A program made the translations under genes and the position numbers. The notes beneath the pieces are model-generated. The model saw nothing but the letters and a program-made list of their open reading frames with translations. It searched no databases and was not told the DNA's origin. From positions 69,694 through 133,693 of the forward strand of contig JAHBXZ010000001.1 in assembly GCA_019636215.1 (NCBI GenBank): a stretch of DNA of 64,000 bases, given 5' to 3'. The stretch comes from Planctomycetota bacterium. GTDB lineage: Bacteria > Planctomycetota > UBA8742 > UBA2392. Positions 17,772 through 21,163 of this stretch are shown here, in pieces. Every line of letters begins with the position of its first letter. The first letter of the stretch is position 1.

Positions 17772-19721
17772 ATGAGTGCCGACAGCAGCGCGGGCGCAAT
17801 CTGTGTGGCTGCCAATGCGGCCTGCACCGGCCCCGGCGGTTGCGGCTGCGGGGGCGGGTCCAACGCCGATACCAAGCTGGAAGAGATCCTGTGGATGTTC
17901 GACGACGATCTTGAAATGTTGGTGTTCAGCGGGCGCATGCAGTACATTTATGGCATGGGCCTTGCCTCCCCAGGCTCGACCAACACACCGCACCCCGATA
18001 CCGCGGGCATGGCCAGCCTTGGCGGCGGCGTGGGCGGCATGATTGTGGCCGAATACCGCTTTTGCGTGGTCGGCGAGTTCGCCGGCCACCTGTGGAACTA
18101 TGAAAACCAGCACGGGTCGCTGATCGGCCAGTGCGATGTCAACGGCGACCGCACCGTCGAGTTCGACTACAGCGACTACGGCCTTACCCTGGAACGGCCG
18201 ATCCTGATTGACGGCCGCACCGGCAACATCAGCAGCATCGCCCACGACGGCATGCTGAACATCACCAGTGTCACCTTCACCAACGGCCTGCCTTCGGCCC
18301 CGATCCTTGGCGCCGAGGTCCGGGTAGCAAGGCCGGGGGCTTCCGCCGACCGCCTGCTTTTTGCCACGGTGGCGGGTACAGCCGGCGGCACGACGATTGT
18401 GTTCCCGGATGCGGGGGCGGTGATTTACGACGCGATCAACGGCACGGGTTATGGCCTGATGGTGCTGCCGTTCTATGCGGGCTATTGGGGCGGGGTCTGG
18501 TCTGGTGCCAGCTATAGCTCCGGCACGGGCCTCACCACGTTCACGGGCGAGTTCGGCACGCCTGTGGGTGGCGGGGCGCTGGGCGACAGTGTCAAACCGG
18601 GCATGGTGGTGATCCCTGACCTGCACAAGGCCGTGCCCCTGCACATCGAAAGCGTGAACATTGATCTTCTGGGCAACGATACGTTGACGGTCAAGGGCGA
18701 CGCCACGGGGTTAGGCGGCAACGGCACGCGTTTCCGCATCCACCAGCATGCGCCCTACAAATACGACCTGACCGACGAAGTCAAACGCAACAACCCCTGC
18801 GACCTCGGCAGCCGCTATCTATGGAGCAACTACCGCCGCATCCCCTGGACCTGGAGCCGCGCCGGCGAAGACCCCTACCTGGCCTGGAACCGCGTGTATC
18901 TGGCCGAGATCGGGCGATGGACCAGCGCGGATGCGCTCGCGACGCCGTGGGAGAACAGGTCCAGCTACTGCGACGCACAACCCATGTCTCATTCTGACCC
19001 TACAGGCCTCCTCAAGGAATCATACCGGGAACCCAATGGGACGCTGAACTTCGATACCGAATACGAGGGGTGCGGTCCTCAGCAGCGCAGAATCTTGCAG
19101 GATCGCCTTTCGGTAGTCGGAAGACTTACGCTTTGGCTTGCTGGTGCAGTCGAGTCAGCGACAACGGCAGCATCCCGTGAGTATGAAAAGAAGAGTGCAA
19201 CTGCTAAAGAGGACGGTGAGTTTTGGCGGGGGAAGATAAAGCAGTGGTTCAAAACGGGCGATATCGAGAAGGAATACAAGGAGATACGCGACAATCTAAA
19301 TGAACTCAAAGAAGTATTTTTTAAGAACCCACCCACAAAGTCGATTTCAATCTCCTGCCACAATGCCTGCTGCGACTACGTGGCACAGGTGAGGGGGATC
19401 GTTGGCTTGGCCAACACCATTCACTTGTGTTGGAGGAAATTCGAGAAGTTGAACGTGCAAGATCAGGCCATGGCGCTGTTTCACGAGCTGTCCCATTCCT
19501 TTGCAGGGACAAGAGACCATTACTACTGGGCCGAGACGATGAAGTGGTGGCATTCCGACATGAATGATTGGAATGGCACAAAGGTAGACGACAAGGACCT
19601 GGACTCCGCCAAGCTTCGGAACAACGCGGCAACGTACGAGTACCTATTCAAAGAAATGTGGGACAAGCACTACGACTCATCGGGCAGGCCGCTGCCAAAG
19701 CCTCCGATTGCCCCAAGATAG
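17772..19721 (+). CDS. Rhs/YD-repeat polymorphic toxin with C-terminal HExxH toxin domain
   Basis: YD-like repeats (FDYSDYGLTLERP). The Rhs core-end motif is YLAWNRVYLAEIGRWTSADAL...SYCDAQPMSHSDPTGLL (compare RYYDPxxGRF...DPxGL). The lower-GC C-terminal tip carries FHELSHSF (HExxH). Start is uncertain (ORF opens at 17583; ATG 17772 chosen). Confidence 0.6.
   Translation: MSADSSAGAICVAANAACTGPGGCGCGGGSNADTKLEEILWMFDDDLEMLVFSGRMQYIYGMGLASPGSTNTPHPDTAGMASLGGGVGGMIVAEYRFCVVGEFAGHLWNYENQHGSLIGQCDVNGDRTVEFDYSDYGLTLERPILIDGRTGNISSIAHDGMLNITSVTFTNGLPSAPILGAEVRVARPGASADRLLFATVAGTAGGTTIVFPDAGAVIYDAINGTGYGLMVLPFYAGYWGGVWSGASYSSGTGLTTFTGEFGTPVGGGALGDSVKPGMVVIPDLHKAVPLHIESVNIDLLGNDTLTVKGDATGLGGNGTRFRIHQHAPYKYDLTDEVKRNNPCDLGSRYLWSNYRRIPWTWSRAGEDPYLAWNRVYLAEIGRWTSADALATPWENRSSYCDAQPMSHSDPTGLLKESYREPNGTLNFDTEYEGCGPQQRRILQDRLSVVGRLTLWLAGAVESATTAASREYEKKSATAKEDGEFWRGKIKQWFKTGDIEKEYKEIRDNLNELKEVFFKNPPTKSISISCHNACCDYVAQVRGIVGLANTIHLCWRKFEKLNVQDQAMALFHELSHSFAGTRDHYYWAETMKWWHSDMNDWNGTKVDDKDLDSAKLRNNAATYEYLFKEMWDKHYDSSGRPLPKPPIAPR
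18012..18731 (+). repeat. ~720-bp segment of the rhs core duplicated at 20243-20961 (~95% identity)
   Basis: Both copies encode ASLGGGVGGMIVAEYR(F/L)CVVGEFAGHLWNYENQHGSL...GDATGLGGNGTRF. Confidence 0.85.
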
Positions 19722-19773
19722 ATGCCGCTCGTTGCCAGACTTGCCGCAATTCCAAGAAATGAGGTGCGACCTA

Positions 19774-20154
19774 ATGACACGTTTAGCATCCATAGCACTG
19801 CATATCTGCATTATGGTTGGAGTCGGACTCTTGTCGAGCTGCAGCGACAACTACCCGGATCCGACTAAGGCAGAGGTTGCACAAGTGTTAGGCAAGATAG
19901 AGAGCAAGCTTGAGGCCAAGTTTCCAACGGGATCGACGAAGGCGCCAATCGTGACGACGTCTGATGTTGCGGACTGCTTTGATGGTGCTTCTCGAGTAAG
20001 GCTTTCGGACCTATCGATATACTCGTCAAGCGACGGATCGTTGCTGTTTGTTGTCATATATGGAGGAGGTGCAGATTGTTCCATGCTGCGCTTTGCTATC
20101 ACACAAACACCAAGGGTAAGCGTACAACACATGACCACAATTAGGGAGAGATAA
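19774..20154 (+). CDS. small lipoprotein downstream of the Rhs toxin tip (candidate immunity protein)
   Basis: gaggtg RBS then ATG. MTRLASIALHICIMVGVGLLSSCSDN is a lipoprotein signal plus lipobox. Low GC like the toxin tip, and placed where cognate immunity genes usually sit. Confidence 0.45.
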   Translation: MTRLASIALHICIMVGVGLLSSCSDNYPDPTKAEVAQVLGKIESKLEAKFPTGSTKAPIVTTSDVADCFDGASRVRLSDLSIYSSSDGSLLFVVIYGGGADCSMLRFAITQTPRVSVQHMTTIRER

Positions 20155-20185
20155 GGCAGCCCTGTCAGAGGAGGCGACTACTTTT

Positions 20186-20986
20186 GTGGTGTGGTGCGCA
20201 AAGACAGGTACATCTGCCGGAGGAAGCAATGTGAGAGTAAGCGCCAGCCTTGGCGGCGGCGTGGGCGGCATGATTGTGGCCGAATACCGCCTTTGCGTGG
20301 TCGGCGAGTTCGCCGGCCACCTGTGGAACTATGAAAACCAGCACGGGTCGCTGATCGGCCAGTGCGATGTCAACGGCGACCGCACCGTCGAGTTCGACTA
20401 CAGCGACTACGGCCTTACCCTGGAACGGCCGATCCTGATTGACGGCCGCACCGGCAACATCAGCGGCATCGCCCACGACGGCATGCTGAACATCACCAGT
20501 GTCACCTTTACCAACAGCCTGCCTGCGGCCACGATCCTTGGCGCCGAGGTGCGGGTTGCAAGGCCGGGGGCCTCCGCCGACCGCCTGCTGTTTGCCACGG
20601 TGGCAGGCACGGCAGGTGGCACGACGATTGTGTTCCCGGATGCGGGGGCGGTGATTTACAACGCGATCAATGGCACGGGTTATGGGTTGACGGTACTGCC
20701 GTTCTATGCGGGCTATTGGGGCGGGGTCTGGTCTGGTGCCAGCTATAGCTCGGGCACGGACCTCACAACATTCACTGGCGAGTTCGGCACGCCCGTGGGC
20801 GGCGGGGCACTGGGCGACAGTGTCAAACCGGGCATGGTGGTGATTCCCGACCTGCACAAGGCCGTGCCCCTGCACTTTGAAAGCGTAAGCATCAACCTGT
20901 TGGGCAGCGACACATTGACCGTCAAGGGCGACGCCACAGGCCTGGGCGGCAACGGCACGCGCTTTTCGCACCATCGCGGCGTGTAA
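20186..20986 (+). pseudogene. orphan rhs core fragment (duplicate of 18012-18731), truncated at both ends
   Basis: The 266-aa ORF matches the internal Rhs segment and ends early (…GNGTRFSHHRGV*). It lacks the Rhs N-terminus and C-terminal tip. Confidence 0.6.
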
Positions 20987-21163
20987 GACACAGGTCAATT
21001 GAACGACGCTGTGGCTGCCGCCCAATGCATCGGGACCAGTCAGCGTCCCCAATTCAATTCGCAGTCCTGCCGCGTGCCGCACTTCGTTACATGGCCGTTA
21101 CCCACGGCAGGCCTTGCGCGGGGTATGCATTGGTGGGGGCTCACCCCCAGACGGAGACCCGCC

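Follow-up and report, generated by a model that had tools for sequence, protein, structure and literature searches.

The Rhs-derived locus that lies beside the fhs gene in the 64-kb window analyzed here (the whole stretch of 64,000 nt from contig JAHBXZ010000001.1) is probably a free-standing orphan cassette array that descends from a giant, Sec-exported Rhs toxin gene of the planctomycete type. Its composition is best explained as a toxin that cannot be deployed, an immunity gene, and two core arms that enable cassette exchange. The locus belongs to a known class of bacterial warfare systems, the swappable tip-immunity cassettes, and it is a real and fairly ordinary member of that class. Mildly new are the aspzincin tip, a core that is split by a double beta-barrel insert, and a two-armed cassette site with no full-length rhs gene beside it.

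A first-pass annotation of this DNA had recognized an Rhs-type gene of about 650 aa without a signal peptide and had left its route of delivery unclear. The Rhs origin is borne out by the core motif YLAWNRVYLAEIGRWTSADAL (18876-18938), by SDPTGLL (18993-19013), and by the recurrence of the same core architecture, CxGPGGC...FEYDY...insert...GRWTSPD...GL, in a full-length relative (L011; JAOSKM010000003.1, Planctomycetota metagenome-assembled genome [MAG] FR_29). In this relative, the Rhs gene (142-11782) is read in two overlapping open reading frames (ORFs; 142..6855 and 5903..11782, 2,237 and 1,959 aa) that jointly resemble a single gene of about 3,900 aa. It carries a signal peptide, an Ig-like domain, DUF6531, and long YD repeats, and its 3' part runs CAGPGGCSCSGG...FEYDYTEQGLT...(~190 aa)...RYTWSGYRRMPWTWSRAGEDPYHTWNRWYLPGIGRWTSPD...DLSGL and then into the tip. 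The split of this gene into two ORFs may mark a genuine frameshift or a pseudogene, or else it may be an error that arose when a gene so rich in repeats was assembled. Downstream follow a transmembrane leucine-rich repeat (LRR) protein, an orphan fragment that has a tip of its own, and another small gene; an rve-family transposase lies just 3' of this orphan array.

Compared with this relative, whose gene spans ~3,900 aa, the window ORF covers no more than the ~630 C-terminal residues, which accounts for both its shortness and its missing signal peptide. Hence, the 649-aa ORF of the first-pass annotation exists as described, from its first ATG, but it is a 5'-truncated orphan fragment and not a complete gene. 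DNA alignment with a related fragment on another contig (L001, 11881-12621) places the onset of Rhs homology at ~17821 (CTGPGGCGCGGG...), whereas the L001 fragment continues further upstream into YD repeats. Upstream of this point there is only ~190 nt of intergenic DNA and then the divergent fhs gene, so that a YD-repeat shell and an export signal are both missing. Consistent with this, no Pfam match to the RHS/YD repeat shell (PF05593, PF25023) was found in the 649-aa ORF, while the shell is present in the relatives P0003 and L011, and the N terminus of the ORF (MSADSSAGAICVAANAACTGPGG) lacks a hydrophobic signal. The ATG at 17772 itself falls within flanking, non-Rhs DNA. Thus, the 649-aa ORF consists of ~50 nt of intergenic DNA from the fhs side fused to a 5'-truncated rhs remnant. 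No full-length rhs gene lies upstream of the fragment within the window, its upstream neighbor being fhs on the opposite strand.

In the remnant, the first half of the Rhs-associated core is recognizable ~230 aa upstream of the second half and coincides with the last YD-type repeat (MIVAEYRF...HLWNYENQHGSLIGQCDVNGDRTVEFDYSDYG). The corresponding NCBIfam model (TIGR03696) matches only with its positions 33-76, to residues 371-413, at 28.3 bits and thus below the cutoff of 32.5. The insert between the halves was modeled by AlphaFold2 (AF2), using a 22-sequence alignment, as two small beta-barrels with a predicted local distance difference test score (pLDDT) of 83-95. A Foldseek search with the core model against the PDB gave no match below an E value of 1e-3, and judging from the model the fold of the insert appears to be generic.

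The last YD repeat and the insert, and exactly these, are spanned by a 0.72-kb direct repeat (18009/18012-18734 versus 20240/20243-20965; spacing, 2231) that is far beyond chance. It had been described in the first-pass annotation as a ~95% identical, 720-bp duplicate of internal core. The repeat is real and does consist of core, although the BLAST identity is 93.1% over 728 nt, running at 98-100% over the first ~300 nt and dropping to 82-87% at the 3' end. Copy B resides in an ORF of 266 aa that ends in ...GNGTRFSHHRGV and a stop codon. Its core likeness ceases after ...GNGTRF, no residual core homology follows between 20969 and 21160, and the window contains no further core copy or RHS-repeat gene. 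Long antisense ORFs on the minus strand cover both core copies (17763-18644 and 20165-21082; 293 and 305 aa). They are almost certainly artefacts of the high GC content, and the third-position substitution bias favors the plus frame.

How the locus changes can be seen in a sister strain, represented by an 845-kb ENA contig (L018). This contig and a Logan contig (L019) both encode an fhs protein identical to that of the window. L018 is 99.0% identical to the window over 5941-18932 and 97.8% identical over 20408-26660. Between these blocks, 1,475 bp of the window are replaced in L018 by 2,441 bp with a GC content of 0.516 that code for another core end (…GRWTSADPIDRQ…DANGL), for a tip unrelated to that of the window, and for an LRR lipoprotein of 535 aa. 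The long ORF of L018 (663 aa) has the first ATG and the MSADSS... start in common with that of the window. Likewise, its copy B is a 199-aa ORF with a later start (at ...YGPTLERPIL) and an identical end (TRFSHHRGV and stop). Because the truncated start and the 3' end of copy B are shared while the cassette between them differs, the core fragments border a tip-immunity cassette that recombines. Both shared parts are therefore older than the split of the strains, and the cassette was exchanged afterwards. The first-pass annotation had likened the arrangement to tip-displacement recombination. Recombination of the Rhs type is indeed involved, but copy B is more than a leftover, as it forms the conserved right flank of the exchanged tip-immunity cassette.

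The GC content of the locus is 0.643 in the core, 0.516 in the tip, and 0.499 in the immunity region, against 0.626 for the whole window. The first-pass annotation had noted the lower GC content of the tip and its HExxH motif and had proposed a toxin of the zinc-metallopeptidase type. This proposal is upheld and can be sharpened to the aspzincin (M35) family through profile matches to solved structures. Related tips recovered in an exhaustive HMMER search include Rhs-linked proteins (P0039, P0066, P0067, and P0088) and matches to the tip only (P0094, P0104, P0107, and P0112; E values of 2e-4 to 9e-4 against the whole library). In a nine-sequence tip alignment, two Cys residues, HExxH, Thr, Asp, and Tyr are invariant. 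An HMM built from the eight relatives, leaving out the window tip, scored the latter at 115.8 bits over the full domain, and all eight of these relatives match PF14521 (Aspzincin_M35; best E value, 1.1e-13). The family profile built from all nine sequences, the window tip among them, matches AsaP1 (2x3a; E value, 2.8e-15), GfMEP (1g12; 6e-14), and deuterolysin (1eb6; 4e-6), with HExxH, GTxD, and the Cys positions coinciding in the profile-to-structure alignments. Since the family profile matches solved aspzincins and the residues listed above do not vary, the tip is best assigned to the aspzincins, as a divergent member with all zinc ligands intact. None of the Pfam Tox-MPTase models matched, nor did a word-indexed homologue search with the tip alone give any match.

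The small lipoprotein gene that the first-pass annotation had noted in the immunity position is there as well, its product starting with MTRLASIALHICIMVGVGLLSSC and carrying a lipobox-like signal (LSSC; MTRLASIALHICIMVGVGLLSS followed by the Cys). Small proteins with a lipoprotein signal also follow related aspzincin tips (115 aa in L013, 203 aa in L014, and ~150 aa in L015), and in other cassettes with the same core, the tip is followed by MORN, LRR, or lipoprotein genes. On this positional basis, the lipoprotein is likely to be the cognate immunity protein of the tip. Neither the lipoprotein nor copy B had a match when scanned directly against Pfam and NCBIfam. No homologues of the lipoprotein were detectable among the compared loci (tblastn noise only), and homology to the lipoproteins beside related tips (BLASTP E value, 0.44) is not claimed. 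Conserved cysteines are typical of secreted M35 enzymes. Together with the exported nature of the immunity proteins, they suggest that the protease may act outside the cytoplasm of its target.

Orphan arrays seem to be the norm for this core. The exhaustive HMMER search, which covered 1.84 billion cluster representatives, returned 113 relatives, most of them short proteins that start at varied points in the core and look like orphan fragments, next to a few giants of 2,000-6,000 aa. One array (L001, 7126-12621; ENA ERZ28613422 scaffold_2541, with the same arrangement in L002) contains four scrambled core fragments that correspond to residues 382-476, 272-313, 302-495, and 93-249 of the 712-aa version of the window ORF and are interleaved with genes for a MORN lipoprotein, an LRR protein, a lipoprotein, and a transmembrane protein. 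These fragments, which belong to a related organism, are 80-94% identical to the window and occupy another genomic site, between sirohaem-synthase-like and RidA-like genes. One of them, P0001, has lost most of the beta-barrel insert and ends in a metzincin-like tip (HEFGHWLGLSH). In L012 and L013, the order is tip, lipoprotein, core fragment, and P0002 likewise sits downstream of a paralogous tip and lipoprotein. The tips that follow the same core thus differ: an aspzincin in the window, metzincin-like tips in P0001 and L012, a DUF900 tip in P0002, and unassigned types in L018 and L011. Of the six Logan contigs that carry P0002 (L003-L008), five begin, inside a paralogous DUF900 tip, ~780 nt upstream of the orphan gene, and the sixth begins ~210 nt upstream. 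The assembly thus seems to have been broken by a repeat, in a tandem array of near-identical cassettes of DUF900 tip and lipoprotein.

How such an array may work can be sketched as follows. Fragment 1 (17821-19721) retains only the end of the gene, from the last YD repeat through the insert and the DPxGL core end to the aspzincin tip, and fragment 2 (copy B) is a further core piece without a tip. Since fragment 1 lacks both shell and export signal, this locus most likely does not deploy the toxin. The cassette might nonetheless persist for two reasons. The exported immunity lipoprotein could protect against the same toxin when delivered by neighbors, and the two core fragments could serve as left and right homology arms. 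In the simplest mechanism, a double crossover between these arms and other rhs arrays would swap the tip-immunity pair. Arrays such as those of L011, L001, L012, and L013, where the partial core of the next fragment comes right after a tip-immunity pair, would be suitable donors.

Several observations weigh against this reading. As for a full-length partner, the exhaustive search gave only short proteins above ~50% identity, the giant matches being only 33-36% identical, and scans of genomes and metagenomes for a close full-length rhs gene yielded only L011 (52%), one distant locus, and a fragment that is short. In the JGI metagenomes, an exact core 35-mer had 0 matches, and profile scans of metagenomes returned only the distant locus already known. 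Giant repeat genes often break short-read assemblies, and for that reason the absence of a full-length partner is weak evidence, but a role of the array as a reservoir for a main gene is hypothetical. The tip alone had no match in NCBIfam, or in Pfam even at an E value of <=10, and gave noise only in a phmmer search against PDB sequences; its single-sequence AF2 model (pLDDT, 47) is unusable. The BLASTP comparison of the window lipoprotein with those beside related tips is not significant. Finally, neither strain has lost the long ORF (649 and 663 aa), and its integrity could be a sign of expression.

This last point leads to the alternative that the 649-aa ORF is an autonomous, expressed Rhs toxin without a shell, acting as an internal toxin-antitoxin (TA)-like module or being exported by some other route. 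We regard this as unlikely, even though the ORF is intact from the same ATG in both strains, whose cores have diverged by ~7%, mostly through synonymous changes, and a close full-length partner was not found in the collections searched. A precedent exists in Salmonella, where internal promoters drive orphan rhs-CT genes (for C-terminal tip) that function as TA modules (PMC7043789). Apart from the missing signal peptide and shell, no sigma-70-like promoter was found on the plus strand, promoter and terminator counts being at background level in what is a weak test. The leader (17772-18011) shows 9 nonsynonymous versus 6 synonymous changes between the window and the sister strain. Moreover, P0001 (L001, 10001-10130) differs from window positions 17895-18011 by a 1-nt deletion for which a 1-nt insertion ~75 nt away compensates, and consequently ~25 leader codons are read in a frame shifted from that of the window ORF. 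Hence, the leader appears to be free of consistent constraint at the protein level. Also, the cysteines of secreted-M35 type and the exported lipoproteins fit a periplasmic target and not a cytoplasmic TA pair.

A more speculative reading, which we consider rather improbable, takes the barrels that resemble domain II of EF-Tu as an undescribed toxin module, for instance for receptor binding or translocation, in combination with cassette sites that work without an adjacent full-length gene. On this model-based reading, the barrel module could be surface-exposed on the Sec-exported giant Rhs proteins of a mainly planctomycetal family. Units composed of core arm, tip, immunity gene, and core arm might then be dedicated exchange sites, possibly yielding active toxins without a shell.

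Returning to the cassette array, its divergence is mosaic. The Rhs-derived core DNA has diverged by 7-10% between the strains, compared with ~1% in the adjacent intergenic DNA and 1-2% in the flanking blocks. Over the 558 nt shared by the four copies (A and B of the window and of L018), every pair is 90-94% identical, without any orthology signal. Synonymous outnumber nonsynonymous changes between the two A copies (45:24), between the two B copies (35:14), and between A and B of the window, which differ at 50 of 723 positions, with 35 of the 47 changed codons being synonymous (35:12). Because the changes are mostly synonymous, lack an orthology signal, and far exceed those of the flanks, the variation was imported by recombination from copies under protein-level constraint instead of building up in place. 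Copy B might be viewed as an in-place tandem duplication that decays neutrally without exchange with other rhs copies, as the direct orientation, the spacing, and the truncated ORF around copy B would allow. This is very unlikely, since the divergence between the copies falls mainly in third, synonymous positions, copies in the same position are no closer to each other than copies in different positions, the DNA between the repeats is wholly different in the sister strain, and the 5' end of copy B varies between the strains while its 3' end is common. That the second copy is a collapsed or falsely duplicated repeat, a check that the first-pass annotation had asked for and toward which the end of L019 at window position ~18371, just beyond the near-identical 300-nt block, might point (as expected where a repeat breaks short-read assemblies), can be dismissed almost entirely, given the differences between the copies, the variants that copy B has in common with P0001 and that copy A lacks, and the independent 845-kb contig, in which A and B are arranged alike and B has an identical 3' end. 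Taken together, the mosaic divergence and the independent assembly thus exclude that the second copy is an assembly artefact or that it arose by simple duplication in place. The features of the locus are collected in Table 1.

Table 1. Window coordinates of the Rhs-derived locus, its parts, and the adjacent fhs gene
Feature	Position	Strand	Description
fhs, formate-tetrahydrofolate ligase	15940-17628	-	FTHFS annotation
ORF	17583..19721	+	Opens at TTG 17583 (712 aa); first ATG at 17772 gives 649 aa
Rhs-derived core remnant	17821..19010	+	From DNA alignment to L001, full-length gene L011, and FTHFS annotation of neighbor
Copy A of 0.72-kb direct repeat	18009..18734	+	BLAST; alternative start 18012
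Last YD-type repeat	18039..18182	+	First half of Rhs-associated core; beta-strands in AF2 model
Family-specific insert	18183..18746	+	~190 aa, splits core; modeled as two small six-stranded beta-barrels resembling EF-Tu domain II
Second half of Rhs-associated core	18813..19013	+	Ends in DPTGL, predicted autoproteolysis/demarcation motif
Strain-variable cassette	18933..20407	+	Core end, tip, immunity gene, first 165 nt of copy B
C-terminal tip	19011..19721	+	Divergent aspzincin (M35, PF14521-like) zinc metallopeptidase, as predicted; GC 0.516
Conserved tip Cys, ISISC	19344-19358	+	Alignment of nine tips
Conserved tip Cys, IHLC	19419-19430	+	Alignment of nine tips
HELSH	19482-19496	+	HExxH zinc-binding motif of tip
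GTRDHYY	19506-19526	+	GTRD at 19506-19517 holds Asp ligand
Predicted lipoprotein, immunity candidate	19774..20154	+	126 aa; lipobox-like LSS/C; GC ~0.50
Copy B, core fragment without tip	20240..20968	+	Last YD repeat and beta-barrel insert; inside ORF 20186-20986

With respect to the wider context, none of the scanned window ORFs, which were those of at least 250 aa, matched type VI secretion system (T6SS), PAAR, or VgrG families in Pfam. The closest relatives come from Planctomycetota MAGs, and the window encodes domains (DUF1565, GEVED, and FGE-sulfatase) that are common in this phylum, making a planctomycete origin likely. Just downstream of the locus, two ORFs in the same frame (21161-22705, plus strand) are split only by a TGA at 21665-21667 into a lipoprotein-like part of 167 aa and a part of 340 aa (junction, ...LNLWLLGTLDDEFC, TGA, ANGRYMRTV...), and the same TGA is present in L018. 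It could encode selenocysteine (C-U motif), be read through, or separate two genuine genes. No Rfam selenocysteine insertion sequence (SECIS) element was found for it, the z score of the downstream hairpin, -0.84, is not significant, and no Pfam domain crosses the junction. On the other side, next to fhs, a DUF4145 gene (14868-15785, minus strand) lies in a patch of low GC content (14750-15800; 0.51-0.55 versus 0.63 for the window) that might represent a small island of acquired DNA. Farther along, the window encodes in its second half a C5 cytosine methylase, a GHKL-type ATPase (HATPase_c_3), two adjacent UvrD-like helicases, and an N6/N4 methylase (29450-31096, 50834-52597, 55356-59601, and 62187-63917), as well as several large ORFs without a Pfam match (31687-40074). 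This cluster of methylases and helicases could be a restriction or defense island.

In conclusion, our analysis extends the Rhs orphan toxin-immunity cassettes, which are well studied in enterobacteria, to a probable planctomycete without a T6SS context, and an aspzincin (M35-type) protease joins the known Rhs tips. The comparison of the two strains provides a clean natural example in which, at the same locus and between flanks that are 98-99% identical, the tip-immunity pair has been wholly exchanged. If it is true that immunity is conferred by an exported lipoprotein and that the protease is of the disulfide type, the target would be located in the periplasm or the cell envelope, which would help to explain how Sec-exported Rhs toxins can act in diderms without injection machines. 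Furthermore, the double beta-barrel insert offers studies of Rhs cocoon architecture a concrete structural feature.

Among known systems, the aspzincins AsaP1 (2x3a), GfMEP peptidyl-Lys metalloendopeptidase (1g12), and deuterolysin (1eb6), together with PF14521, share with the window tip HExxH and GTxDxxY with its Asp ligand, and the cysteines of the tip align with the C-x-C and LC positions of MEROPS M35 peptidases. Unlike these peptidases, the tip has no propeptide and a spacing from HExxH to Asp that is two residues shorter, is fused behind an Rhs DPxGL motif, is paired with a lipoprotein, and is too divergent for a direct Pfam match. HExxH zincin tips have been described on RHS-repeat toxins, planctomycetes included (Tox-MPTase1-5, HopH1-like, and ALF-MPTase; PMC3482391). 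The window tip resembles them in being an HExxH metallopeptidase used as a variable C terminus but belongs to a different zincin clade, and the available portion of the text of that 2012 polymorphic-toxin domain catalogue (PMC3482391) contains neither "M35" nor "deuterolysin." The full-length relative L011 is akin to the Sec-exported giant Rhs/YD-repeat toxins (WapA-type; the signal-peptide "T2SS" class, for type II secretion system, of Zhang et al. 2012, PMC3482391) in its N-terminal signal peptide, DUF6531, YD repeats, core, tip, and downstream immunity gene. In contrast to the WapA-type toxins, the window fragment lacks the whole delivery part, and the core of its family is split by an insert. 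The closest counterparts are the orphan rhs-CT/rhsI modules at the rhsC locus of Dickeya dadantii 3937 and in Yersinia pseudotuberculosis and Salmonella Typhimurium (PMC3150448, PMC7043789). As in the window locus, these are 5'-truncated, retain core homology upstream of DPxGL, and carry a variable tip followed by a small immunity gene. Related strains likewise share the flanks and carry unrelated CT/immunity pairs, which are exchanged by recombination in the core. Unlike the enterobacterial orphans, the window locus adjoins fhs instead of lying downstream of a full-length rhs gene or beside T6SS genes. Its core also contains the double beta-barrel insert of ~190 aa, its cassette is flanked on the right by another, tipless core fragment, and its host is probably a planctomycete.

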